From NCBI RefSeq assembly GCF_963921235.1, contig NC_086097.1:35900001-35964000 (forward strand): a DNA stretch of 64,000 bases, written 5' to 3'. The notes below the pieces were generated by a model. The model ran no database searches. It had not been told where the DNA came from and saw only the letters and a list, made by a program, of their open reading frames with translations. The DNA is from Mobula hypostoma (taxonomy: Eukaryota). This document shows, piece after piece, positions 9,598-48,106 of this stretch. The position numbers and the translations under genes are program-made. Each line of letters opens with the position of its first letter. Within the stretch, counting starts at the first letter, position 1.

Positions 9598-9729
9598 TTC
9601 TCTTTTTTTTGGCATGTGCCTGCGTGCGTGCGAGTCTGTGCGTGTGCGTGTGTGCGAGTCTGTGTGTCCATGCGTGCGTCCGTGATGATGTCTTTTTCAT
9701 GGCTTTTACAAGGCGTGGAGCGAGCGAGC

Positions 9730-9762
<33 letters not shown>

Positions 9763-11153
9763 AGAGGGAGAGGGAGAGAGAGAGAGTGGGAGGGAGAGGG
9801 AGAGGGAGAGGGGGAGAGGGAGAGGGGGAGAGAGAGAGAGAGAGAGGGAGAGAGAGAGAGAGAGGGAGAGAGAGAGAGGGAGAGGGGGAGAGAGAGAGAG
9901 AGGGAGAGAGAGAGGGAGAGGGGGAGGGGAGGGGGAGAGAGAGAGAGAGAGGGAGAGAGAGAGAGGGAGAGAGAGAGAGAGGGAGAGGGAGAGCAAGAGA
10001 GAGAGAGAGGGAGAGGGAGAGGGGGAGAGGGAGAGAGAGAGAGAGAGGGGGAGAGGGAGAGGGGGAGGGGGGAGAGGGAGAGAGAGAGGGAGAGGGGGAG
10101 AGAGCGAGAGAGAGAGGGGGGGAGAGGGAGAGGGGGAGAGAGAGAGAGCGAGAGAGAGAGAGAGGGAGAGGGAGAGGGGGAGGGGGAGAGGGGGAGAGAG
10201 AGAGAGGGGGAGAGAGAGAGAGAGGGAGAAGGAGAGAGAGAGAGGGAGAGGGAGAGGGAGAGCAAGAGAGAGAGAGAGGGGAGAGGGAGAGGGGGAGAGG
10301 GGGGAGAGAGAGAGAGAGGGAGAGGGAGAGGGAGAGAGAGAGGGAGAGGGAGAGCAAGAGAGAGAGAGAGGGAGAGGGAGAGGGAGAGGGGGAGAGGGAG
10401 AGAGAGAGAGGGAGAGGGGGAGAGAGCGAGAGAGAGGGGGGGAGAGGGAGAGGGGGAGAGAGAGAGAGAGAGAGAGAGGGGAGAGAGAGAGAGGGAGAGA
10501 GAGAGAGAGGGAGAGGGAGAGGGAGAGCAAGAGAGAGAGAGAGAGGGGGAGAGGGAGAGGGAGAGGGGGAGGGAGAGAGAGAGAGGGGGAGAGGGAGAGG
10601 GGGAGAGGGAGAGAGAGAGAGAGGGAGAGGGGGAGAGAGCGAGAGAGAGGGGGGGAGAGGGAGAGGGGGAGAGAGAGAGAGGGAGAGAGAGAGAGCGAGA
10701 GAGAGAGAGAGGGATAGGGAGAGGGGGAGGGGGAGAGGGAGAGAGAGAGAGAGAGGGGAGAGAGAGAGAGGGAGAGAGAGAGAGAGAGGGAGAGGGAGAG
10801 GGAGAGCAAGAGAGAGAGAGAGAGGGGGAGAGGGAGAGGGAGATGGGGAGGGAGAGAGAGAGAGGGGGAGAGGGAGAGGGGGAGAGGGAGAGAGAGAGAG
10901 AGAGAGAGGGAGAGGGGGAGAGAGCGAGAGAGAGAGAGAGGGGGAGAGGGAGAGGGGGAGAGAGAGAGAGGGAGAGGGAGAGGGGGAGGGGGAGAGGGAG
11001 AGAGAGAGAGGGAGAGGGAGAGGGAGAGGGAGAGGGGGAGAGGCAGAGAGAGAGAGAGAGAGAGGGAGGGGGAGAGGGGAAGGGAGAGAGAGAGAGAGAG
11101 AGGGAGAGGGGGAGAGAGCGAGAGAGAGAGAGAGAGGGAGAGGGAGAGGGGGA

Positions 11154-14729: not shown

Positions 14730-15935
14730 AAGAAGTAAATTTATTATCAATGTACATATATACCTCCATATACTACCCTGGGATTTACTTTCTTGTGGAT
14801 ATTCACTGTAAATACAAAAAAACACAATAGAATTAATGAAAAGCTACACACAAGACAGACAAACAGCCAAATGACAACAAACTGTGCAAATGCAAAAAGA
14901 AAACAATAAACAAAATTATAATTGTAAGGGGTTTCTTCTTTTATGTTACTGCGTAGGCTAATTAAAATGGCTTCTTTGTTATGTGATAATTAAAATGGCT
15001 TCTTTGTTATGTTATAATTAAAATGGCTTCTTTGTTATGTTAACTGCTGAGAAAGTTCTCTCGCTAGCAGCTTGTTTGGGTTATAATACTGATAAGAGAG
15101 CGAACGAACCAATTGTGATAGATGTTATTCTTTCTAGTGTGTCTGTAAGCTATTGTGATGCGTGGGTTTTGGGGAGAAGGCGCTATGGAGACAGAGAGAG
15201 CAGACAAGATGCTGTGAGCTGGCTGACGGGGCGGACCCGAGCCGGAGTCCGAGGTCCAGGGTCTTCAGCGAGGAGAGGAGATGAAGACAGACTCACGTGC
15301 AGCCTCTGGACGACCACCACGGTTGGTCCCAGGCAGCAGGTCGAGGTTGTCAGAGGGGATCGAATGGTGAAGAGAGGATCGTTACTAGAGCTCCAACTGT
15401 TTGTGCACGAAGAGATTGAACTTTGATAAGTTTGGCACCTTTTATTTTCCCTTTATATTTTATCTCTATTAATTATAGAGTTCCAGTAATATCTATAAAT
15501 TGTAATCAATTAATCATATATGGTGTCTTGTCTGTTATTTGGCGGGGTGGGGTACATCATACAGCATCCACACAAACTTAACTACCCAGTTTGGCAGGGC
15601 CGAGGGCTGCTTCCCCGAGACAGCGAGTTCAGCAAGTCTGAGGCTTACCGGGGGTCTAAATAATAATAAATAAGTAAGCAATAAACACTATATCGAGAAC
15701 ATGAGTTGTAGAGTGCTTGAAAGTGAGTCATTAGGTTGTGGAAACAGTTCAGAGAGAGGGCAAAGTGAAGTTGAGTGAAGTTATCCTCTCTGGTTCAAGA
15801 GCCTGATGGTTTAGGGGTATTAACTGTTCCTGAATCTGGTTCTGTGGGTCCTGAGGCTCTTGTACCACCTTGTTAATGGCAGCAAAAAGAAGACAGCATG
15901 GCCTGGAAAGTGGGAGTCTTTAATGATGTATGCTT
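14730..15935 (-). mobile_element. Rex1/Babar-like LINE 3' end, split by a solo LTR
   Basis: TTCAAGAGCCTGATGG..TGTTCCTGAATCTGG..CTGAGGCTCTTGTACC, shared with 24945-25405 and with the 3' ends of the Rex-type ORFs in this window. Confidence 0.65.
14923..15660 (+). mobile_element. Solo LTR related to the LTRs of the 26061-30148 element
   Basis: TGTAAGGGG..ATGTTACTGCG..GGCTAATTAAAATGGC matches the reverse complement of ~30098-30148. 4-bp TSD TAAT (14919-14922, 15661-15664). Confidence 0.85.
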
Positions 15936-25405: not shown

Positions 25406-26060
25406 ACTCTGAACTTCAGGACTGGAAGATGTAGAATCCTTGTGAGTAGAGTTAAGAAACTGCCAGGGTGAAAGAGTCTGATAGGAGTTATATACAGGCC
25501 TCCAAACAGTAGCCAGGATGTGGGCTACAAATTGCAATGGGAGGTAGAAAAGGTAAAAATGTAAAAAGGGCAATGTTATGATAGTCATGTGGGATTCCAA
25601 TATGCAGGCAGATTGGGAAAATCAGGTTGGTGCCGGATCCCAAGAGAGAATTTATAGAATGCCTATAAGATGGAATTTTAGAGCTGCTTGTGGGTGAGCC
25701 ACAGGGGATCAGCTATTTTGGTTAAGGTGTTGTGCAATGAACTGGATTTCATCAGTGAGCTAATCCAGGAGGAAGTGATGATAATATGATAAAATTCACC
25801 CTACAATTTGAGAGGGAGAAGCAAAAGTCAGATGTATCAGTATTATAGTTGAGTAAAGGGAATTACAGAGGCATGAGAGGCATGACCAAATTTGATTGGT
25901 AGGAAACACTAGCAGGGATGATGGCAGAGCAGCAACGGATGGAGCTTCTGGGAGCAAATCAGAAGGTGCAGGATAGACACATCCCAAAGGAGAAGTATTC
26001 TAAAGGCAGGATGATGCCACCATGGCTGACAAGGGAAGTCATAGCCAACATAAAAGCAAA

Positions 26061-26743
26061 TGTAGCCCCCCGCCGGCCACCCTCAGGGTTGCTCGGCTCA
26101 CTGTCGTCTAGGGAAACAGCCTCGGCCCCGCCAAACTGGGTAATAGTTTGTGTGGATGCTGTGTGAGGTACCCCACCCCGCCCAAATAACAGACAATACA
26201 CCAGATGCAATTAAATGATATACAGTTTATAGATATTACTGGAACTATATAATTAAGAGAATAAAATATAAAAGGAAAATAAAAGGCGCCACACTTATCG
26301 AAGTTCAATCTCTTCGTGCACAAAACAGTTGGAGCTCAAGGACCTTCTTCTTCACCCTGCGACCCCCTCGGACCACCTCGACCGGCCGCCTGGGACCAAC
26401 AAAGGTGGTCGACCAGACGCTCCACACGAGTCCGTCTCCATCTCCTCGCTGAACGCCCTCCTCGGGGTCCGACCCCGTTAGCGGACATCACAGCACCTCG
26501 TCCATCCTCTCCCACCTTCTGCCCCAAAACCCCACGCATACAGTATCTTCAAATACACCAAAACCATAACAACTATCCCAATTGGTTAATAGCACCCTCT
26601 TATCACCCTCTCAACAAAAACAAGCTGCTAGCGCAAACTTTCTCAGCGTTTAATACAACAAAGCCACATTCCCCACATTAACATAACAAAGACGCCATTT
26701 TAATTAGCCTCCGCTGTAACATAAAAGTCAAAACCCCCTGACA
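26061..26743 (-). repeat. 3' LTR
   Basis: Direct repeat of 29455-30148, preceded on the minus strand by the PPT at 26744-26756. Confidence 0.92.
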
Positions 26744-27031
26744 CTCTCCCCCCACCAAATAAAGTCATGTCCTCATGACTTCTAAATAACTCGCCAACCA
26801 GTCCTGCAGACACACAACACACACATACACAGATACACACAGTGCCAGTGCTCCCCAATCAGTGGACCTTACTCCCGTCCCACAGGCGCTACATAGGCCA
26901 ACCTATCTGGGAGCTTCTTAACCCTCCGAGACCTCCGTACCCCCTCACCTAAACCCAAAAGGCTCAGACACTACTAGGGATACCTCGGGTCCGCTTGCCA
27001 ACTCCTCTCTCACTCAGGCCACCACTACAGC

Positions 27032-27946
27032 TCAGAGCCCCCTGTCCTGTGTCCGGGGCCCCGCCTCTCCTCCTTCCTGATCCTGCCGCAACTCAGACTG
27101 CCCACAGCTAACCCTCCCCACTACACCTGACTCAGTGGGAGAAGGGCCAAAGGTCGCTTCCTCAATCACGGGGAAGCTAGCAAAAGGCAGCATGTACCAC
27201 ATGTGCAGCACATCATCCTTCGAATCCGTATCCTTCCTCATTCCTTCGACCGGTAGCTGCTGTTTGAGTTTCTCCAAACTGAAACATTTAGCCGGGGCTA
27301 CTCCTTCAGCCTCCTGCAGTTGAGACGTCAGCTTCTTCGGGGACTCCTTCAACACTCGCCACAGCCTCAGCAGTTCCGACTCAGGGTTCCTGGCCATCTC
27401 CATCTGGGACGCAGTTACCCCACCAGCTTCTTCCTCCCTGACCTGAAAAGCAGCAGTTAAAAGATGTTCAGCCTCCGGTTGTTTCTTCCTGAGGACGTCC
27501 TCCAGGTCAACTTTCAGTTTTTCCACTTCGTTTAAACTCACGATAGTCATCTTCAGGTTCCTTTCAAGCATCCGCCTCCCTTTTCCGAGATCTGTCCTCC
27601 ATTTCTTCACCTCCTCCGGAGTGTAGTCAAACTCTCCTCCCTGGGCGCTCGGTTTTCTGTTGACCTTAGTCAGAACACTTCCTTGATCTTCCCCAACTTG
27701 TAAGTCTTCCAATCTGTTCTGAATGGACGTCTTGAGTTTCTGCTGATCCCTTCGAAGGTGGGTCATTGTTTCTCCTCGCTGGATTAATTCATCAGTACAT
27801 GACCGCAGTGCGGTGCAAATCCCCTCTCTTCCCTGTGTCTCAATCAGATTGACGACCTGGGTTTCCATCCCCTGGTCCACCACCGTCTGTCCCAACACCA
27901 GGAAGTTCAACTGGTATGTCGGGTCATTTTTCTCACATTGCACCAA
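27032..27946 (-). CDS. Chimeric ORF: sarcomeric myosin heavy-chain rod fragments (~234 aa) fused to the Gypsy pol C-terminal tail
   Basis: 304-codon open frame with [75 protein letters not shown] and [24 protein letters not shown], colinear with myosin II rod motifs. The annotated start codon is TTG; expression is unknown. Confidence 0.8.
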
Positions 27947-29454
27947 ACTCCTCCGGCCAAAAACTCCTCCACATTTGACACTTCACTTCGGTCGCCCGGG
28001 CTCAGCCACTCCCCTCACCTCATAGTCCCCACAGGCGAATCCAAGCTCTAGGCGGTCATCCACATACGTCAAAACTCCACACACCTTCACTTCCCCCATG
28101 GTCTTCCTCATGCCCCGCAGGAAGGATGCAGGGGCTCCGGATATGCCCTTGGGCATCTTTTCGGATCGGAAGAATCCTAGGGAATTAGTAACGGCCATCT
28201 TCAGCTCAACAGCCGCACTCCTCGGGATCTGGCAACATCCACCCCTCAGATGCAGCACATTAAACCACGTTGCATAATCCACACACACGCTGCCTTCATC
28301 TTCCACGCCGCTAGGGTCCAGTTGCCGCGACCTCTCTCTTACTGAGGTGTCTTCAGCGGTCAACTCCCCTCCCTCGTGGTAGTTCGGAGCATCTACTAAG
28401 AGAGTCTCACCCTCAGCTACTTTCCCCAAACCGTACCACCGCTGGGTCTCGTTTAAATTCGCTACTGGCTCAAGGCTGCTACACACGTGCTCAGAAGCAA
28501 CTCGACACGCCGGGTGCCCAGAAAATGCCTCCATGACTTCCAGGGTCATTAACCAATCATCGTCTTCTGGATAACTACTGCCACTAGTACCCAAAGTCCC
28601 CGGTGCCCTTGTGGTTGTCAAGGATAAATGCTTCAGACACCGGTTTTAAAACGAACTGTACAACAACTTGATCTGCGCCCCGGGGTCGAGGATAGCTTTA
28701 GCATCGCTTCCCTCTATCCATAGCGACACCCTGGGGCGTGGCCCCTCTAGGCCTTCAGGAATAGGGTCTTTTCCTTTCGGAAGTTCATCGGTACATTGCT
28801 GGGAATGTGCTTACCCAGAGATCCCAAGCCGTTCCCCTCACTGGGCCTCCACTAAGTTTCCCGACACCTCTCTGATCAGCTGAACAACTGAAGGAGGGGC
28901 TGATCCCCTGAAATGATCCCCCTGGCACTGCAAGCAATTTAGCCGCCCTCCTAGCCACGGAAGACACACTGAAAACTTTCCCCCCTCTTTCAAATAACTG
29001 ACAGCTGTCACTACGGTGTAAGCGAGCCTGACAGCTCTAACACCGTCACCAGCCCGCCTACTCAAACTTTCAACCAATCCCTGTCGCTCTCCCTCAACCA
29101 AGCTCTGCCACTCATCTAACAACTGCGAGATCCGCTCCGCCCACGTCTCACACGCCTCCGCCCCTCTTGGGGTGGACACAATCCCAAACGCCAGGCAGAG
29201 CCTGCCAGAGCTAGAACATTTATTCGCAGACCCTACCTTCAAATCAGACCACTCTGTCCTCTCTCTCCCAACCGCATGGACAGCCCCAAGTGCCACCTCC
29301 AACTCATCAATGCTAGTCTGAACTCGAACAAAGACCTCACCCACCACGCATACAGCAATCACCAGCAAATAACCCACAGAGACACACATTACAGATTGAA
29401 ACAGGGCACCACACAGCATACCAGCAGACTCAATCCCGGACAAAGCCCACACAA

Positions 29455-30148
29455 TGTAGCCCCCCCCGGCCACCCTCAGGGTCGCTCGGCTCGCTGTCGT
29501 CTAGTGAAACAGCCTCAGCCCCGCCAAACTGGATAATTCGTTTGTGTGGATGCTGTGTGATGTACCCCACCCCGCCCAAATAACAGACAATACACCAGAT
29601 GCAATTAAATGATATACAGTTTATAGATATTACTGGAACTATATAATCAAGAGAGAATAAAATATAAAAGGAAAATAAAAGGCGCCACACTTATCAAAGT
29701 TCAATCTCTTCGTGCACAAAACAGTTGGAGCTCAAGGACCTTCTTCTTCACCCTGCGACCCCTCGGACCACCTCGACCGGCTACCTGGGACCAACAAAGG
29801 TGGTCGACCAGACGCTCCACACGAGTCCATCTCCGTCTCCTCGCTGAATGCCCTCCTCAGGGTCCAACCCTGTTAGCGGACATCACAGCACCTCGTCCAT
29901 CCTCTGTCCCGCTCTCCCGCCTTCTGCCCCAAAACCCCACGCATACAGTATCTTCAAATACACCAAAACCATAACAATTATCCCAATTGTTTAATAGTAC
30001 CCTCTTATCACCCTCTAAACCAAAACAAGCTGCTAGCACAAACTTTCTCAGCGTTTAACACAACAAAGCCGCATTCCCCACATTAACATAACAAAGACGC
30101 CATTTTAATTAGCCTCCGCAGTAACATATAAGTCGAAACCCCCTTACA
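29455..30148 (-). repeat. 5' LTR
   Basis: Direct repeat of 26061-26743, followed on the minus strand by the PBS. Confidence 0.92.
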
Positions 30149-32039
30149 CAAAAGGGAGGGCATATAATAAAGCAAAAATTAGTGGGAAGTCAGAGGACTG
30201 GGAAACTTTTAAAAACCAACAGAAGGCAACTAAAAAAGCCATCAGGTAAGAAAGATTTGAAATATGAACACAAGTTAGCCAACAATATCAAAGAGGATAT
30301 TAAACATTTTTCCAGATATAAAAACAGTATAAGAGAGGTGAAGATAGATATTGGACCACTGGAAATTACTGGTAGAGAGGGAGTAATGGCAGACAAGGAA
30401 ATTGCATTCAAACTGAATAAGTATTTTGCATCACTCTTTACTGTGGAAGACACTAGCAGCATGCCAGAAGTTTGAGAGTATCGGGGGAAGAAGTTTGTGC
30501 AGTTGGAGAAGGTGCTTGGGGAACTGAAAGGTCTGAAGGTACATAAGCCACCTGGACCAAATAGACTACACCCCAGGGTTCTGGAAGAGGTAGCTGAAGA
30601 GATTGTGGAGGCATTAATAATGATCTTTCAATCACTAGATTCTGTAATTGTTCTGGAGGACTGGAAAATTGCAAATTTCACTCTATTCTTTAAGAGAGGA
30701 TGGGAGAAGAAAGGAAATCATAGGCCAAGTAGCCTGACTTCAATGATTGGGAAGATGTTGGAGTCCTTAATTAAATATGAGGTTTTGGGATACTTAGAGG
30801 CATATACTTAAATAGGCCAGAGTCAGCATTGTTTCTTTAAGGAAAATCTTGCCTAACAAATCTGTTAGAATTCTCTGAGGAAATAACAAGCAGGATAGAC
30901 AAAGGATAATCAGTGGATGTTGTTTATTTGGATTTTCAGAAGGCTTTTGGCAAGATGCCACACATGAGGCTGCTTAACAAGATTAGAGCCCATGGAAAGA
31001 TTCTTGCAGGGATAGAAGATTGGCTGATTGGCAGAAGGCAAAGAGTGGGAATAAAGGGGTCAGTGTTGGGACTGCTTACATTGAATATCAATGATTTTGA
31101 TGACGGAATTGATGACTTTGTGGCCAAGTTTGCAGATAGGTGGAGGGGCAGGTAGTGTTGAGGAAGCAGGGAGGCTGCAGAAGGATGTAGACAGATTAGG
31201 AGAATGGACAAAGAAGTGGCAGATGGAATAGTGTCAATAAGTGTATGGCTAGGCACTTTGGTAGAAGGAACAAAAACATAGCCTATGTTCTAAAATGGGA
31301 GAAAATTCAAAAGTCCAAGGTGTAAAGGGAATTGGGAGGCTTCATACAGGATTCCCTAAAGGATAATTTGAAGGTTGATTCGGTGGTGAGGAAAACAAAT
31401 GCAATGTTAGCATTCATTTTGAAAGGTCTGGAATATAGCAGCAAGGATGTAATGCTAAAGCTGACAAGGCACTGGTGAGGCCTTACTTAGAGTCATTTTG
31501 GGCCCTTATTTAAGAAAGTTTGTGCTGACATTCGAGAATATTCGGTGGAGGTTCATGAGACTGATTCTGGGAATGAAAGGCATATCATACGAGGACTGAT
31601 TGACAGCTCTGAGCCTTTACTTGCTGGAATTTAGAAGAACGAGGAGGGATCTCATTGAAATCAATCGAATGCCGAAAGGCCTAGAGACAGTGGGTATGGA
31701 GTGGTTGTTTCCTATGGTGGGGGAGTCTAGGACCAGATGGCACAGCCTCAGAATGGAGGGATGACCTTTGAGAACAGAGATGAGGAGGAATTTCTTTAGC
31801 CAGAGGGTGGTGAATCTCTAAAATTCATTGTCACAGGTGCCTGTGGAGGCCAGGGCATTTAGTGTATTTACGGCAGAGGTTGATAGGTTCTTAATTAGTT
31901 AGACCATGAAAGGTTATGGGGAGAAGGCAGGAGAATGGGTTTGAGAGGGAAATGATTCAGCAATGATGAAATTACCAAGAAGACTCGATGAGCAGAATAG
32001 CCTAACTCTGCTGCTATGTCTTATCTACATATCCCCTAT

Positions 32040-38225: not shown

Positions 38226-41200
38226 CTTGGATGAATACAAAAAAGCCTAGTAATATTCTAATAAATCTCTTCTGGGAAATGTATGAAGTTCTGTGTGGTA
38301 CTCAAAACTGGACATAATACTCAAGTTGCAGCCAAATCAGTAGCTTATAAAAGGTGGCTTCATTGTTCCTGAATTTGACATCTCTATTTATAAAACACAG
38401 GAATCTGTATGTTTTCTCAAATACTTCCTCTTCCTGTCCTGTCTCTTCCAACAGATATACAGGTGCTCCTGCACCCTTCACAGAGCTTGCACGTTCTGGT
38501 TCGAATCACGTCTCTTCATTCTCACAACAGAGAATAATTTTGTTCTTTTGTGCATTAAAATTCATCTTCCATATGTCCACCCATTCTAGCATCCTAGCTA
38601 TATCCCCCTGGTCCATACAGTATCATCCTCCTCCAAGTCTACAACATCAGAAATCTGGAGCAAGACTAGGCCATCTGGCCCCTTAGCACTACTCTGCCAT
38701 TCAATAGGATGATGGTCGATCTGCCACAGGCCTCCGCTCCTCTTCTGTACCAGCTGCCCATGTCTCATATTCCCCAATCTTTCAAAAGGTACCTACCCTC
38801 TCTTTAGTGACCTCCAATGATCCAACCTTCACAACTCTGTACCGGAGTAGAGAATTCCAGAGATTTGCTGCCCTCTGCCAAAGGAAATTCATTTTATCAT
38901 TTTAAATGACTGCGCTTTTATTTTGCAACAATGCTCCCGATGTCCGGACTCTGCTTTGCATGCATGGCATCCATACCGAACATTTCATTACATCAGTGCA
39001 GCAGAGTTTCTCACTGTAGCTCAGCACATATGACAATAATAAATCAATTTACCTCTCAGCATTGTTCACATCATTCTCTGTATGTCACTAAAAGTTCATC
39101 CCTCATTCTTCTAAACTCTAATGAATAGAGATTTAACTTTTTTTAGCAGTACACAATAGAAAAACCCTTCCATCCACTCAATTAGTCTCGTGAGTCTCTT
39201 CTGGGCTGCATCCAGTGTTTGAATTTTTTTTCTTAAGTACACTTCAAACCTTTATATAAATTATGCCTGAGTCCAAGTCATTAACGGACATGAAGTTCTG
39301 ATTACTGACCCTGGAGGAACTCCTTTATGCACTTTCCCATAGTTTGATAAACAAATACGCATTGCTAATCTTTGTTTTCTTGGTCAATTTTCTATCTATT
39401 TTGCCCCTCACCTTTTTATTCCACCGATGTCTGTGAAACCTATCATGCAAAAGCCCCATGAAGCCTATCTTGGGGATGTTTTATCAAATTCTTTTTGCAT
39501 GTCCACGAATAACACGTAAACCCTATCTAATACTTTATCAAAAAGCTCTAATTAGTTAATTTGTCCACAAACCGATGATAGCCTGCTCTACTGAACTGAC
39601 TATTAAAGAATGACTGCTAATTTCTCAGCCTCCTACTCTGTGGACACTCATGACTTCATTACCAGATTCTGCTATAACTCCATCTCCTATTTCACAGATG
39701 ATACCACCATAGTGGGCTGTATCTCAAATAAGGAGGAATTGGAATACAGCAAGAAAATAGAGAGCCTATTGACAAGCTTCATGACAACAACCTTTCCCTC
39801 AGTGTCGGAAAACAGAAGAGCTGGTCTTTGACTTCAGGAAAGGGGTGCACATGCTTTTATTTACTTCAACAGGGCTGATGTCGACAGGACCTCACCTCAA
39901 CACTGAACTGATTTCACAACCTATGAATTCACTTTCAAGGACGATACAGCTCCAGGTCTTCTTTAGCACATGGCCTTTGTGTGTAGTTTTCGTAGATTTT
40001 ATTGTATTTCTTTGTTCGACTCTGAATGCCTACAAGAAAATGAACCTCAAGGTAACATATGATGACATATATGTACTTTCATAATAAATTAACTTAGAAA
40101 TTTGGTTGAGAGCTTCAAGTTCCTAGGAGAGTTGAAAACATCTTGACCAATCAATGTAGAAACTTCCTTCACACCTGATTAAACCAGAGCCATTTTAGCC
40201 ATGGACTGAAAACAAGTGACATTGATCAAAAATCTGCTTCACAACTAATGTCACAGTGTAACGGCAGTTCCAATATTACCATGCTTTAATTGGACACAAG
40301 AAGAAGAAGCACTTGAAGGAGCGCTAACCATTATTAGCAGCTAGTCACACAGCGATAATGATTTCCCGTGTTCATTAAAATCAGCAAGCAGAAAGATTTG
40401 AAATAAGGCTATGTACTCTGACCTTTTCCAACACAATTTAGACAGGGATTCCCTTAGGATCTTTAGCATCACTTCATACATTACAAAATAATGCACACCA
40501 AGTTGAATTCAGACAGTTTATAGTGGGGAACCAGTGCAAAGTCTTAGAAAACTACCAGCAAAGAAACTGCCTTCAGCCCATCTAGTCTATGCTGAACCAT
40601 TTAAGCTGCCTAGACTCATCCATTCTTATGGCACATCCCATACTAATGGAGTAGGAATTCTTATGGATGAAAACATGGCAAAAATTGTTTTAGGACATTG
40701 GGCAATATCAGAAAGAGTGTTCCTTGTTAGATTCAGAGGACAACCATTTGATTTAGCAATTATACAGGTATATGCACCAACAACAGATGGAACAAATGAA
40801 GATATAGATAAATCCTATGAAGAGCTTGAACAAGCAAAGAATGGATGCAAATATCAAGATATTGTTATTGTCATGGGAGATCTAAATGCTAAAGTAGGAC
40901 GAGGTGCTGATAGAAATACTATAGGAGAATTTGGACTAGGGGAAAGAAATGAAAGAGGTGAGAAATGGGTAGAATGGTGCAAGATGAATAATCAGGTCAT
41001 TATGAATATCTACTTTAGAAACCATTCAAGATGTTTATGGACCTGGAAAAGTCCAGGTGATAACACCAGAAATCAAATTGACTTTATTACTATAAACCAA
41101 AGATTTAGAAACTCAGTGACTCAATGCAAAACATATCCAGGTCAAGACTGTAATAATGACCATAACCCAGTAATATGTCATGTAAAAGTAAAACTTTAAA

Positions 41201-41271: not shown

Positions 41272-44200
41272 TGTGACGGGGTCCTGAATTACCCCTATGA
41301 ACTGTGATTTTGAAAAGAGAGAGGGAGAGGTATTTAACACTGACATCTTGTTTTTAAGAGAGAGAGAGAGCGAAAGAAAAAAAGAGAGAGAGAGAGAGAG
41401 ATGAAGACTGCTTTGAGATGGTGTTATGAACTCCTAAGGTTCATATTTCCTGTGGACTGTCACTTTAAGGCACGAGGAGCTTTCGGATTTCTGCTGAGTT
41501 GGAGAGAGAGAGAGCACCGAGCACCTCGTAAGATGCTATAGTGACCGAGGGTGGTGTTATTTGATAGGCAATCAATGTTATAGTTTCTCTGAAGCGTGTT
41601 TATACTTCCCAAGGACATGGCCTGCTAGTGCATTCTTATGCAGACAAAGAAAGAAGGAGTTATTTGACAGATAGTTGGTACTCAGTACAGTAAGATAAAT
41701 AGGAGGTCAGATGATAGACCTGCGGCACATGTTTCTGGACACTGAATGAGCTTTGTTGTGCCCACAGGAAAAGTGGGGTTTTGGAGGATCGATCAAACGG
41801 ATCGATCAGTGGCTCTTGCAGTGAGAAAAGGGAGTGACCGGTGGGGAGTTGTCCATGTGTCCACCCTTGCCTGGGTTGATGATTCCACCACAGAAAAACG
41901 GTCTCCTTTGTTGAAGTCACAGTCAGTGACTTTTAAAGGATTTCGGAGGACAATGAGAAGATCGACGGTGTCAGCTCACCTTGAAGACTCAAATCTCTCC
42001 CTCTCTCTCTCTCCATCACTACTCAACTCAATACCTCGAACTGAACTGAACTTTACTCATTATCGTAGGACTATCTATTTACCCCTAGACTTGAAGAAGC
42101 TTGGTTTTCATATATTTCCACACTTACTGATATATTTACTTATATATAATCATTGCTAATCTGTTTGATTTATGTGCATTTAAATTACTGTATTGTGTAG
42201 TTACTACTAAATATTATTAGTTAATAGCAATACTGGACTCCAAATTGTTTTCCATTTCTGCTGGTTCTTTAACCCGTCACGGGGTACGTGACAAAATTGG
42301 GGGCTTGTCCAGGATATGAACAAATTGGTTGGGAGGCTTGTTTGAATTGATTGGGGAAAATCCCTTTTGATTTGTTTGTGTGGAAATACAGCAGAAATGG
42401 ACATTAGTGTTGAGAGGTTTCTGTTGGAATCAACCCCAGAAGCATTGTATGATGCTACAAGGGATGTGCTGTTGGGAATTGCTCAAAAGTTAAGACTAAA
42501 GGTGGCCACTAAGATGAGGAAGGCTCAGATGCAGACGATAATAGCCCAGCATTAAATAGATAAGGGCACGTTTGATGAGGAGGCGTTAGAGTTATTTGCT
42601 GAAGGTAAGGTACTTACTGAGGATGAGGTTCAGTTGCAATTGAAATTGAAATTAAAACAGCTCGAGGCTGATGAAGCAGAAAGGCAAAGCTTCCATGAGG
42701 CTAGAGAGGCAGAAAGACAGAGACAGTTTCAAAGGGAGATGTGGCAGCTGAGATGTTTAGTGTCGGACCCTGATGATTTTTACAGCTTGGAAGGGCTTGT
42801 TTTGTGTGATGAATTTAAAAGTTGTGTCCCCTATTTTGTAAGGGCATACCTGGATGCAGAGGATGCCACCACCCTGCGGGGGTCTGCAAAGAAAGCAGAC
42901 GAAGATGCTTCAAGCCACAAGCTTGAGTTTACTCCAGTAGAGTGTTTGCCAGAGAATAGCTGGGAGGTTCAGGGTGACCTTGAATTTGAAACTGGGACAA
43001 GTGATGATAGCCCACAAGAGGCAGCTGTCCCAATTGCCTGTGTTCAGGTTGTTGAAGTACGTGTGAATTCACAGGGTTCTGAACCTTGTGTTGAGACTCA
43101 GTTAAGGTCTGAGGCACCTGACTTGGTCAGAAAGGAATGCAGTTTTTTTGTGTCAGATGATCTTGGTTCAGTGATTAAGGGGTCAATCTTGGTACCAGTG
43201 GAAAATGGGGATTCACAGTCACTTGCATTAGACAGTGAGGTAAAAGTTAGTGATGAGGTGAAAATTGGTGAGGTACGTGTTAATGGAAGTAATGAGAAAA
43301 GTGCTGTTCCTGGACTTTTGAGTAAAGTGCTGGGAAAGGTTGGATTGGTTGCGCTCCCTTCAACCCTACTTGCAGGACAAAGACCTGCAGAGGAATGATG
43401 TGCTACTCTGTGGAATTTTGTTTGGATATTTGGAGGTAAACACCTGCAAGGTTATGATGTTGTGGTGAAGGAGGAAGTTTGTTATGGGTTTGAGATGCCA
43501 TTGTTGATTAATGTTATGGAGATAAGTCAAAGTGAAGGTCATAATCAGATGAACGGATTGTTTGGTCTCTTCCACAATGTATACATGGTTCTTCTAAGCC
43601 TGGTGTTGGTGCTAGGTTTAGTAAACAATGGAGGAATGTTGACACCTCTCCAAGATAAGGTTGATATAGCTGTTAAATTAATGAGCAAAGCTGCTGCTGA
43701 GAATTCACACAGAAAGTCTGATGTTTATCCCACATGCACAGATACTCCAAGCATGTTTAGGAAGCCTGCTGAGGCCCATGATAACGAAACCAGAGGTTTA
43801 AATTATGAGGATGTGTCACAGACTTTTCTACCTTCCAGATTTCTGCAGGACCTAGAGGGTAGTAAAGCTGATGAGAGTAAGGTGTATGAGGAAGGTTTGT
43901 CCTTATTGAGGAAGGAATTTATAGAGGAACAGAAATTCTAAAATGGTGGCTTTAAAGGAGATAGCTCTCACAGGAGAGGAGGCTCAGAGAGAGTCATTGG
44001 GATATTACCTTAAAGATGGGGTGTTGATGAGGAAGTGGAGACCAGCCACTGTGCGTGCAAGTAAGAATTGGGTTATTGAACGTCACGTGGTGGTTCCGAA
44101 AGTGTACAGGGCTGAAATTTTAAACATGGCTCACAGTATGCCTTTAGGTGAGCATTATGGAGTGAGGAAGACAGTGAACAGGATTATGAAGGAATTTTAC

Positions 44201-46490
44201 TGGCCTAGTTTAAGAAAGGATGTTGTGAATTTTTACAGGACTTGCCATACCTGTCAAGTTGAGGGGAAATCTAATCATGTTATTCAGGTAGCACTACTTA
44301 AATCGATACCTGCTTTTGGTGAACCTTTTTCTAGGGTCACAGTGGATTGTGTAGGCCTGTTGCCAAAGACTGCAGCTGGTTATCAGTATGTGTTAACAAT
44401 TGTGTGTGCTGTGTCTAGGTTCCCTGAAGCCGTGTCTTTTGAAAACATCCAGGCCAAGACTGTGGTAAAAGCATTCAGTAAGTTTTTCACACTGGTAAGT
44501 CTGCCCAAAGAAATTCAATTTGACCAGGGTAGTAACTTTACTTCGAGAACATTCCAGGAGATATTTAGAGAATTGGAAGCTAAGCACATTGGGTCATCTG
44601 CATATCACACAGAGTCCAAGGGAGCCGTGGAACGGTTCAAATCCACTCTTAAGACCATGATAAAAACGTATGGTGTGAAAAATGGGAAAAAACTGGGTTG
44701 AGGGGATTCCCCTCCTCTTATTTATTGTTGGAGATGCGATTCAAAAGCCATTGGAGCGTAGTCTATTGGAACCTGTGTTCAGTTACAGGCTAAAAGGACC
44801 TTTGGCCCTACTCAGAGAACTATGGTCTGATATGGAAACGTGTCAGTGTGCTTAATTATGTTCTAAAATTCTGGAAAGGATTTAATAAGATTTGTGACCT
44901 TGCAAAGGAAAGTTTACAGAATGTTCGAATTAAAGTAAAACACTTGCTAGCTAGGACTGCATCTGGGAGAAATGTTATGGAACCAAATGGAGTAGTGGAA
45001 TCTGACAATGGGATAAAAAAACCTGTTTGCCCACTGAATCTAGTATCAACAAGAGGTCAGAATTCCATTGTTTTGAAAAATATTACTGATAAGGTCCATC
45101 AGTTGGACCCTACACCACAAAAACAAGTGAAAGAATTAATTGGCAAACCAAGATTTATTTTCTGCCATTCTGAAACGGTGCACAGGTGCAGTGCATCATG
45201 TCATTATAAATTCAGCCCAGCCCATAAAACAGCGTATTTACAGAGTGAACTTTGAGAAAAGTAAAATGGTTGAACAAGAAATTAGAAACAAGAAAGAACA
45301 AGGGAAGAGAATGGATGACTGTATTGATAGAGTGGGGAAGGCTAAATACCTTATAAAGATTGACTTGTTAAAAGGATACTGGGGTGTTCCTTTAACAGAG
45401 AGGGCTAAATAGATATCAGCATTTGGGACACCATCTAGACTGTATGAGTAAGATGTTTTACCCTTCGGGATGAAAAATGGTCCAGGGACGTTTCAAAGAA
45501 TGATCAATTCTGTGATTAGAGATTTAGAAAACACAGAGGCTTATATCGATGATTTAGTGGTCTGGAATGACACATAGGAAAAGCATATTGCAGCGGCAGA
45601 AAAACTGTGTGACAGACTTTCCAAGGCCAATCTTACTGTGAACCTCGCTAAAGGTGAGTTTGGCCATGCCACAGTTACATATCGGGGCTATGTAGTAGGC
45701 CAGGGCCACCTGGTTCCTGTACAGGCCAAGGTTCAAGCTGTTGCTGAGGTTCCTGTTCTGACCGGCAGGAAAGCTTTGAGAAGGTTTTTAGGAATGGTTG
45801 GGTATTATTATACATTTTATAAGAACTTTGCTGACATTGCTCTCCCCCTAACAAAACTCCTGGGAAGAGTGAAAGATTTGTATGGAGTGAGCTTTGCCAG
45901 AAGACACTTGAATGTCTGAAAACTATCCTGTGTTATCATCCTGTGCTCAAAGCACCTGATTTTTCAAAACCATTCTCGATAGCAACAGACACTAGTGACG
46001 AAACTGCTGGGGCAGTACTGTTACAGAAAGGAGTGGATGCAATTGAACACCCAGTAGCTTATTTCTCAAAGAAATTTAAAGGGCGCCAGAAAAATTATTC
46101 AACTGTTGTAAAGGAATTGTTAGCACTTATTCTGGCCTTACAACATTTTGAGGTCCGTATTTGTCCTGCCCAGAGACCCCTTGTGGTTTACACCGATCAT
46201 AATCTGTTGGTGTTTCTAACTAAGATGAAGGATAAGAATAGAAGGTTGTTAAATTGGAGTCTGATATTGCAAGAATGTGACAAAAATCAAACATGTGAAA
46301 GATACTGCAATTGTACACAGTTTAGCTCTGTCATCTGATGATCATACATGTATTGTCTCAAACTCTAAGTTACACTTAGACAAAAAAAAATTTTTGCCTT
46401 CGTCAAAATTTATTTTTCTCTGAAGGAAGGCGGTGTTACGGGGTCCTGAATTACCCCTGTGAGAGAGGTGAGAGAGTGAGAGAGTGAGAG

Positions 46491-46522
<32 letters not shown>

Positions 46523-47298
46523 CACCGAGCAGCTTGTACGTCACTATGGTGACCGAGGGCAGCATTATTTGATGGACAATCGACGGTATAGTTTCTCTGG
46601 AGCATGCTTATATTTCCCAAGGACATGGCCTGCTAGTGCATTCTTACATAGACAAAGAAAGGAGGAGTTATTTGAGAGACAGTTTGTACTCAGCACGGTG
46701 AGATAAATAGGAGGTCAGATGATAGACCTGCGGCACGTTTTTGGACACTGAATGAGCTTTGTTGTGCCCACAGGAAAAGTGGGGTTTTGGAGGATCAATC
46801 AGACGGATTGATCAGTGGTTCTTGCAGTGAGAAAAGGGAGTGACTGGTGGGGAGTTGTCCATGTGTCCACCCTTGCCTGGCTTGATGATTCCACCACAGA
46901 AAAACGGTCTCTTTTGTTGAAGTCACAGTCGGTGACTTTTGAAGGAATTTGGAGGACAATGAGAAGATCGACGGCGTCAGCTCACCTGAAGACACAAATC
47001 TATCCCTCTCTCTCTCTCTATCACAACTCAACTCAATACCACGAACTGAACTGAACTTTACTCATTATGGTAAGACTACCTATTTAGCCCTAGACTTGAA
47101 GCAGCTTGGTTTTCATATATTTCCACACTTACTGATATACTTACCTATATAAAATCATTGCTAATCTGCTTGATTTATCTACATTTAAATTACTGTATTG
47201 CGTAGTTACTAATAAATATTATTAGTTAATAGCAATACTGGACTCCAAAGTGTTTTCCATTTCTGCTGGTTCTTTAACCCGTCACGGGGTACGTGACA
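41272..47298 (+). mobile_element. Two-LTR Gmr1-type Gypsy retrotransposon (integrase before RT), degenerate
   Basis: LTRs 41272-42293 and 46434-47298; PBS TGGGGGCTTGTCCAGGAT (42298-42315, 16/18 to the tRNA-Pro PBS); PPT 46422-46433; TSD GACA/AACA. Integrase 43943-44701, RT ~45140-45900 (IDLLKGYW, PFGMKN, YIDD), RNase H 45943-46300. Confidence 0.93.
43943..44701 (+). pseudogene. Retrotransposon integrase (Zn-binding region plus rve core)
   Basis: AHSMPLGEHYG..TCHTCQ, VDCVGLLP, FDQGSNFTS and SAYHTESKGAVERF. Confidence 0.9.
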
Positions 47299-48106
47299 AA
47301 CAAAAATTTATAATTGCAGTAAGGAACAGATTTCGAAGTCTAGAAATAGAATCTGTTGAAGATGATAGCAATCATGTAGAAATGAAGTTTAACTCTCCAA
47401 AGAATGCCTTGGTAGAATCAGCAATGTCAGTGATTCCTAACTAAGAAAAAAGCATAAAGAATAAATGGATGACAGATGAAATCAAAAAACTAACGGAAGA
47501 AAGGAGACAGAAGGAAGCAAATCCTATAGAATACAAGTCCTTAGATAAAAAAAAGTTAAAAACTGATGTCAAAAAGCCAAAAAAGAATGGTTAAACCAGG
47601 AATGTGAGCAATTAGAGAGAATCGCTATTACTGATCCAAAAAGGTTACATCAACAAATCAAGAATATCACTGGTAAAAAGCTCCTCTGTTCTTCAGGTGG
47701 ATGTTTGAAAGCAAAGTACAGTACCATTATCATGGAAAAAGATGAGATTATGAACAGATGGACTGAGTATATTCAGGAAATGTTTGAAGACAATCCAGGC
47801 AAAAAAACAGAAATTACGAAGAAAATTGAAGCTCCAAGTATTTTAAAATCAGACGTTTGTAATGCAATAAAGAAGATAAAGAAAGGAAAGGCAGCAGGTC
47901 CTGATGAATTAGTAATAGAACAAATTATCGCCCCTGATGATTATGGAATTGAAAAACTTAATGATTTAATCAATGACATTTATGAGACTGGAATAATACC
48001 AGAAGAGATAAAAAAAATCAGTATTTATCACTCTTCCTAAGAAACCTGCATTAATAGAATGTGAATTACATACGACCATAAGTTTAATGAGACATATCCT
48101 AAGATA

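Follow-up and report, generated by a model that had tools for sequence, protein, structure and literature searches.

Among the closest described systems is the mouse IAP 1-delta-1 element (Saito et al., 2008, as cited), a non-autonomous endogenous retrovirus with an in-frame 1.9-kb gag-pol deletion whose fusion product, according to the available excerpts of later papers, helps in cis (PMC6466679; PMC7411935; PMC10924933). For maize Bs1 (PMC13317346; PMC7264820) and for long terminal repeat (LTR)-mediated retrocopies of animals (Tan et al., 2016; PMC5131818), the accessible text describes template switches guided by microsimilarity. Taken singly, non-autonomous LTR elements, the capture of genes, and translation that acts in cis are all known phenomena. 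Here we analyzed a window of 64,000 nucleotides (nt) from the ray Mobula hypostoma (GCF_963921235.1, contig NC_086097.1, positions 35,900,001 to 35,964,000), in which an LTR retrotransposon on the minus strand (26061-30148; positions are those of the window) carries pieces of a myosin heavy chain among remnants of gag and pol. Comparison of this copy with its relatives suggests that its reading frame was kept open in the master copies and its amino acids were not, and that translation itself may have been selected. In the open literature, as far as titles and the beginnings of abstracts go, we found no account of this element or of selection on the frame alone in a non-autonomous LTR element (subscription journals, Repbase/Dfam, and preprint supplements lay outside the search), and the main text of a mobulid genome preprint (10.64898/2026.10.27.761883) uses the word “myosin” 0 times.

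On the minus strand, positions 27032-29473 form a single frame of 814 codons with five stops including the terminal one (28838-28840, 28811-28813, 28646-28648, 27983-27985, and 27032-27034), whereas each of the two remaining minus frames has 54. When this DNA was dinucleotide-shuffled (n = 2000), the best of the three frames held 33.4 ± 3.6 stops with a minimum of 20, and five or fewer were seen in 0/2000 shuffles. The preliminary description of this stretch had placed gag, protease, reverse transcriptase (RT), and myosin in one frame with four internal stops, and both the common frame and the stop positions proved exact. Its equation of 27032-29473 with the internal region was correct as to the frame but not as to the end, as 29473 falls within the 5′ LTR (29455-30148) and the first Met of the frame lies at 29419, 35 nt past that LTR. 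A low stop count alone is little proof of selection, because both parents of the chimera were coding.

The frame begins with a PNMA-like gag remnant (28838-29419, minus strand, as are the parts that follow; Pfam PNMA, E 2.6e-4), which runs in its native frame from the first Met to the gag stop with about three internal deletions and contains blocks matching the fish Gypsy Gag proteins P0149 and P0178. For the pol part we used as a map the autonomous Pol P0171 (residues 2-108 correspond to protease, those up to ~525 to spacer and RT, 702-733 to RNase H, and those from ~1322 to the tail, with myosin before the tail), in which Pfam identifies RT, RNase H, and integrase; all its matches from 28834 to 27041 lie in the phase of this frame. 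The protease remnant (28517-28837; Pfam RVP, E 0.076) aligns ungapped with P0171 residues 2-108 (47/107 identical) and contains the stops 28811-28813 and 28646-28648. It is followed by the spacer and an RT remnant (28013-28516; Pfam RVT_1, E 0.027) with five in-phase deletions, in which the first catalytic Asp is lost and P0171 matches extend to ~525, by the stop at 27983-27985 between the RT and RNase H pieces, and by an RNase H fragment of 30 codons (27866-27961; Pol 702-733, 53% identity to P0171). The myosin insert sits between Pol 733 and ~1322 and consists of intron-free pieces of the heavy-chain rod joined in phase (27263-27868; about MYH4 905-925, 977-1094, 1153-1187, and 1396-1427), found by phmmer against MYH4 and MYH7 in the PDB (MYH4, E 1e-7; 118 residues ungapped). 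The 905-925 piece was placed through P0005 together with what we take to be the myosin numbering. A C-terminal Pol tail (27014-27253; ~1322-1400 of P0171) continues in phase to a probable family stop at 27014-27016. The ORF (open reading frame) 27032-27946, previously called the myosin ORF, does contain the myosin pieces but is a mosaic that also includes the RNase H fragment and Pol tail.

The family was sampled through run contigs aligned to 26990-29480, with 7047, 6474, and 508 records in the runs X1, X5, and X15, respectively, and none in a fourth run, X21; X1 and X5 are DNA from two organisms, and X15, which we guess to be RNA and which covers 30/30 bins, was not used as evidence of expression. 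A sense codon was found at 27983-27985 in 96.5/99.7/100% of the depth of the three runs, at 28646-28648 in 99.8/98.9/100%, and at 28811-28813 in 99.4/98.8/100%, and the 27983 site is read through by the three Mobula models P0003, P0025, and P0026. These three stops are private to this copy. The terminal stop 27032-27034 is probably private too, as it is passed by 3/3 related proteins reaching that point (P0002, P0007, and P0010), two of which end at the next in-phase stop, 27014-27016, probably that of the family. The preliminary description had treated the four internal stops alike and asked whether they are copy-specific: three are decay stops of this copy, but 28838-28840 ends gag at the gag/pol junction, a point at which members of the family fall into two phases. 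The near-fixed differences between this copy and the family, among those listed (40), fall 15, 10, and 15 by codon position, a spread that would fit neutral decay after insertion. Between 27032 and 28837 no length difference reached 20% of depth in any of the three runs. This stretch shows no private length change, yet the two LTRs differ by five gap events, most of them in runs or short repeats; this may reflect ascertainment of the copy, or the LTRs may have been unequal already at insertion.

The element belongs to an abundant family of non-autonomous Gypsy LTR elements in rays of the genera Mobula, Hypanus, and Hemitrygon, and this locus is one of its copies. All 12 protein matches of the myosin ORF come from Mobula birostris, M. 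hypostoma, Hypanus sabinus, and Hemitrygon akajei (45-93% identity). The Hypanus set comprises 10 clustered gene models on several chromosomes, three of them 729 amino acids (aa) and three more 632-691 aa long, and these predicted models run unbroken from gag to the Pol tail. At least five subfamilies (P0002, P0005, P0007, P0010, P0013, P0032, P0006, P0008) differ in the RT, RNase H, and myosin pieces that they kept, and a 276-nt skip in the run contigs equals the 92-residue gap of P0007 and P0013. The full-length protein search scored the best 8000 candidates and returned one cluster, which does not show the absence of others; likewise, a search for shorter proteins spanning the gag/protease junction found none, a result that does not show absence. 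No DNA of relatives appeared in the metagenome scans or the viral scan. P0024, a 54-aa JGI protein in the cluster of P0003, appears unrelated and is likely a clustering slip.

The frame was kept across deletions and captures. In the pol-myosin-tail part 11/11 junctions are in phase (six within Pol, RNase H to myosin, three within myosin, and myosin to tail), and gag has about three further in-phase junctions. The count of 11 is based on fair anchors only, with weak anchors of five to seven residues merged (otherwise 13-14) and the ~3 gag junctions left out; in-phase deletions known only from gene models of other subfamilies were excluded, such models being open by construction. Of the short direct repeats of this DNA 36-38% keep phase, and at this rate the chance of 11/11 is ~2.4e-5. 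As a control we took rare joints in the run contigs, several of which carry unknown inserts; among the best 15 of 45, 6/15 were in phase (Fisher p 0.002 against 11/11). A second control lies past the stop, where the rest of the Pol tail (26744-27013) matches P0171 1450-1474 and 1484-1522 in two other phases and has 5 in-phase stops in 96 codons. Its junctions are in phase in 0/2 cases (p 0.013; both may be private). The loss of constraint directly past the stop fits a model of translation to 27014.

The frame was also kept against point change. The window and the Hypanus proteins share 62% identity over 265 protease-RT residues and 60-64% over myosin and tail. Random decay to 62% identity gave ~12 stops per 598 codons, with a minimum of 5 in 200 runs; with a strand-specific spectrum the shared 460 codons should have gained 8-11 stops (probability of none 2.6e-4 to 1.6e-5), and the number of fixed stops over these codons is 0 in either lineage. 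The frame was very probably selected in the master copies. That the master lineage was selected for a long frame had been proposed in the preliminary description, and the three private stops, the unbroken Hypanus frames, the in-phase junctions, and the missing stops all speak for it.

The protein sequence behaved differently. Neutrality was judged at the protein level, and the Hypanus and Mobula sequences are predicted gene models. Between the lineages, the BLOSUM62 mean of replaced residues was -0.54 in protease-RT (n 101), -0.53 and -0.41 in myosin (n 72 and 70), and -0.77 to -0.91, or -0.83 as a single figure, in the gag block (n 23-26). Neutral decay gives -0.6 to -0.7 and autonomous Pols -0.10 to +0.64, with weaker controls for gag (-0.37 and -0.24). 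Of 98 sites that are invariant in autonomous Pols the two lineages agree at 0.58, and of 61 variable sites at 0.54 (p 0.63), whereas the autonomous control agrees at 0.99 of invariant and 0.16 of variable sites. The myosin part of the window has 7 prolines in 205 residues, compared to 0 in the 118-residue MYH4 stretch, and one half of the capsid-like domain has been lost, either deleted or shifted into another frame. In gag, pol, and myosin alike, the replacements that separate the ray lineages look neutral-like, although constraint on a handful of residues is possible. As stops and phase seem to be selected and amino acids do not, selection would act on translation itself, not on its product; we give this reading, in which translation, the decay pathway, and a helper are presumed, a probability of roughly 0.65. 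A ratio of nonsynonymous to synonymous change (dN/dS) near 1, to which the protein data appear to point, would not refute selection on the frame, and the test in the preliminary description, which listed such a value among its refuting outcomes, was misframed.

The same data bear on the possibility that the Gag-Pol-myosin polypeptide acts in cis as in IAP 1-delta-1, the Gag remnant or the coiled coil tethering its own RNA to helper particles, with few residues or bulk properties being important. Such a protein has precedent, as far as the available parts of the sources tell (PMC6466679; PMC7411935). A 70-residue capsid-like block and myosin pieces are common to both lineages, and the gag-pol fusion is hard-wired in Hypanus. 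The neutral-like replacement in all three parts argues against it, and invariant sites are no better retained than others; four copies have 5-9 prolines in the myosin part, the myosin pieces lost differ by subfamily, and part of the Hypanus gag is in another frame. We therefore regard a cis-acting protein as unlikely, and the earlier proposal that a Gag-coiled-coil product was selected does not agree with the neutral-like change, the prolines in myosin, and a capsid-like domain half lost or out of frame.

The frame could also have stayed open without any selection, if it was inherited from two coding parents, if deletions at short repeats fell in phase, if an A-to-G bias, which cannot make stops, prevailed, and if an open-looking family or copy was picked. 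Several junctions indeed lie at short repeated peptides, the sense strand is 35% G, and its differences from the family show an excess of A-to-G over T-to-C (27:9, 21:12, and 34:17) that could stem from RNA editing or RT error; the lack of a private length change in 2.4 kb, beside five gap events in the LTRs, points to ascertainment of the copy. However, the deeper, polarised changes have no A-to-G excess (4/32), and even with A-to-G quadrupled 5-7 stops would be expected (P of none 6e-3 to 1e-3), so that this bias is insufficient as the cause of the open frame. The phase bias of short repeats (0.36-0.38) is likewise too small to account for the in-phase junctions, off-frame stops are plentiful, and the phase is lost at once past the stop. 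An unselected frame is therefore quite improbable.

Several copies of the element, whole or in part, are contained in NCBI gene models: P0014 is annotated as TMEM192 isoform X1 and P0012 as SDHAF3 isoform X1 (both H. sabinus), and P0026 as GSTT2 isoform X1 (M. birostris). The element likewise accounts for many “myosin-like” and “MYH16” models, MYH16-like being the NCBI name of several related models. Some copies are therefore spliced into host transcripts in these models, as would be expected if the masters were host loci with a host function, either a domesticated chimeric gene or an exonised copy, that also spawned copies. This is highly improbable, as amino-acid constraint is missing, many near-identical copies are dispersed instead of one conserved locus, and several subfamilies carry different deletions.

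The gag/pol junction deserves separate consideration. A slippery heptamer of the form X XXY YYZ in -1 frameshift phase (28856-28862, minus strand) precedes 28838-28840 by 15 nt, and we read the latter as the gag stop because the Pol of P0171 starts there, behind the heptamer. At the junction 34%, 44%, and 11% of the depth (X1, X5, and X15) lack one base relative to the window, so that pol comes to lie in the -1 frame, as it usually does; in the remaining 56-66% of Mobula DNA depth pol stands in gag's own phase past the junction. Given the 34% and 44% in the two DNA runs, the single frame over gag and pol assumed earlier is not family-wide. Copies with the window's phase probably share the gag stop, which is favored because the intact parent seems to have a stop there, judging from the start of P0171, and because the first Met past the junction is where 3/3 Mobula models of the window's subfamily begin. 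The Hypanus models switch to the -1 frame ~45 codons upstream of the gag stop, and the -1 frame in the heptamer region has a 57% match to residues 119-165 of Hypanus P0014; the reading frame of this ~45-codon gag stretch differs between the Mobula and Hypanus lineages. No stable fold was found near the junction in three windows (z +0.5 to +0.8; pseudoknots are outside the model). The internal Mets at which Mobula models start, and a gag stop that the main Mobula subfamily may have fixed, would suit selection on RNA length or packaging-signal spacing combined with a separate, internally started or spliced pol-myosin message and frames open for unrelated reasons, but length selection needs no phase and the Hypanus frame is unbroken from gag, which makes this very unlikely.

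If translation as such is the target of selection, the history of the family might be as follows. In myliobatiform rays, an ancestral Ty3/Gypsy element would have taken up myosin-rod mRNA by template switching in place of most of its RT, RNase H, and integrase, and intact helper elements would have done the copying. Ribosomes would begin at gag and then enter the pol-myosin-tail frame, by a hard-wired shift in the young Hypanus subfamily, by -1 frameshifting at the heptamer in some Mobula copies, and by readthrough or a fused frame in others, ending ~270 nt before the 3′ LTR. With a stop at 27014 the 3′ untranslated part would comprise 270 nt plus part of the LTR (< ~1 kb), compared to ~2.1 kb plus most of the LTR (~2.7 kb) for a stop at gag. 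Most likely, the short 3′ part would let the unspliced RNA evade nonsense-mediated decay; alternatively, the RNA might remain in the translated pool on which helper Gag draws for packaging. Changes that break the frame, whether deletions, captures, or point changes, would yield dead-end copies, those that keep it would be free to spread whatever their amino-acid effect, and after insertion every copy, including that of the window, would decay neutrally. In Rous sarcoma virus, the available part of the source reports that premature stops lower unspliced RNA to ~10% and also diminish the RNA that is packaged, and that decay acts on long 3′ regions (PMC9143442); according to the excerpt of a further paper, readthrough of 1-5% can protect RNA from decay (PMC5360307). 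The earlier suggestion that the frame was kept for RNA stability is thus the branch that fits best, although translation and decay are here deduced from sequence.

Several points weigh against selection on translation. If the copies with the window's phase share the gag stop, a -1 shift would end after ~20 codons, and the main Mobula subfamily may carry this stop with no evident way past it. The Hypanus and Mobula proteins were found because they are open, and their models may hide introns. Furthermore, mouse ETn and cattle D-type non-autonomous LTR elements thrive without a long frame, as far as the accessible accounts of them go. The most far-reaching version, a “ribosome runway” in which all stops and frameshifts were purged across the ray lineages, amino acids were ignored, and myosin was in-frame filler, is tentative and falls somewhat short of an even chance. 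It would also include two independent fusions of gag and pol, one upstream (Hypanus) and one at the gag stop (main Mobula subfamily).

The element has two LTRs, a polypurine tract, and a target-site duplication. The 5′ LTR (694 nt, 29455-30148, minus strand) has TG...CA ends and aligns with the 3′ LTR (683 nt, 26061-26743, minus strand) with 651 matches, 30 mismatches, and 5 gap events; the two copies of the 4-bp target-site duplication (26057-26060 and 30149-30152) are identical in bases. A degenerate stretch resembling a primer-binding site adjoins the 5′ LTR (29433-29453, minus strand) and presumably recalls tRNA-Pro primer sites. The polypurine tract (26744-26756, minus strand) ends the internal region next to the 3′ LTR. 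Besides these Ty3/Gypsy hallmarks, gag, protease, RT, and RNase H follow each other in the order of P0171, and the RT part of P0008 matches Ty3. Among 19 family proteins scanned, the protease Asp is replaced in each Hypanus protein in which the motif is seen (7/7) and the first RT Asp in each protein of the window's subfamily (4/4). No part of the element matched the integrase of the autonomous Pol P0171. Both results agree with the dead catalytic motifs and missing integrase noted in the preliminary description. These three features rule out an autonomous Ty3/Gypsy element. An endogenous retrovirus is ruled out as well, as no env-like region lies between pol and the LTR and the closest Pol relatives are of Gypsy type. 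By its sequence the element is a derived, non-autonomous Ty3/Gypsy LTR retrotransposon with dead enzymes.

An LTR-like copy at 14923-15654, 77% identical to the element's LTR and in opposite orientation, has no internal region matched by element protein and is probably an older solo LTR. The element itself is nested in a decayed long interspersed nuclear element (LINE; ~25440-26056 and 30153-31900), whose RT-like peptides resume on the right flank and which we take to be of CR1/L2 type by its motifs. Elsewhere in the window, a second Gypsy element (~41500-47290, plus strand) has LTRs 86-94% alike and is interrupted by stops and by one or more frameshifts; its integrase precedes RT and RNase H, which is presumably the order of the Gmr1 clade. 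It is flanked by endonuclease- and RT-like peptides of another LINE (40507-41199 and 47567-48040, plus strand). A long GA-rich simple repeat lies at ~9600-11000.

Where thousands of repeats share an open frame, a useful protein or domestication is usually suspected; here open frame and useful protein do not go together, which calls for caution with ORF-based calls. The family explains false ray gene models, such as MYH16-like, myosin-like, and the isoforms X1 of TMEM192, SDHAF3, and GSTT2. It would also be one of the few comparative indications that parasitic retrotransposons are shaped by RNA surveillance or by packaging coupled to translation. If the “ribosome runway” is true, thousands of mutated copies would map the position of stops against RNA decay and copying success in cartilaginous fish.

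Compared to autonomous vertebrate Ty3/Gypsy elements with a PNMA-like Gag (P0171, P0033, P0178, and P0149), the ray element shares homology in Gypsy order, LTRs, a polypurine tract, a 4-bp duplication, and 43-49% identity to P0171, but it lacks integrase, retains 30 codons of RNase H, has lost catalytic residues, and carries the myosin insert. It resembles Bs1 and the LTR-mediated retrocopies, as described in the available excerpts, in that host mRNA pieces replace part of the internal ORF and the product is non-autonomous. Intron-free host mRNA flanked by discontinuous element parts is found in its internal ORF, and by all appearances a host myosin mRNA replaced part of pol as in those retrocopies. 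However, Bs1 is a chimeric gene of possible function from three host genes and the animal retrocopies are low-copy, whereas the ray family has one myosin source, a very high copy number, and a decaying protein.

Like IAP 1-delta-1, again as far as the accessible text describes it, the ray element is a non-autonomous LTR element that keeps one gag-pol frame over deletion and would need helper proteins; as in IAP 1-delta-1, it would outnumber its helpers and profit in cis from its own translation. The open frame spans pol, myosin, and tail in both lineages and gag to tail in Hypanus, and is mixed at the Mobula junction. IAP 1-delta-1 is young and has one deletion, and its effect is credited to the fusion protein, whereas the ray family has at least 11 junctions, a captured host gene, lineages ~38% apart in protein, and unconstrained amino acids; given this neutral-like change, a functional fusion protein of the IAP 1-delta-1 type is not apparent. 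The accessible accounts of coronavirus defective RNAs likewise describe parasites of a helper with a long fused frame over deletion junctions, in which the frame matters and the sequence does not. Those are RNA-virus parasites studied in short passage series, and the ray element is a germ-line retrotransposon whose behavior over evolutionary time we infer. The question posed by IAP 1-delta-1 and defective RNAs, translation or product, becomes testable in this family by natural variation alone, and if the “ribosome runway” holds, the ray element would be the germ-line, evolutionary-scale counterpart of translated defective interfering RNAs.

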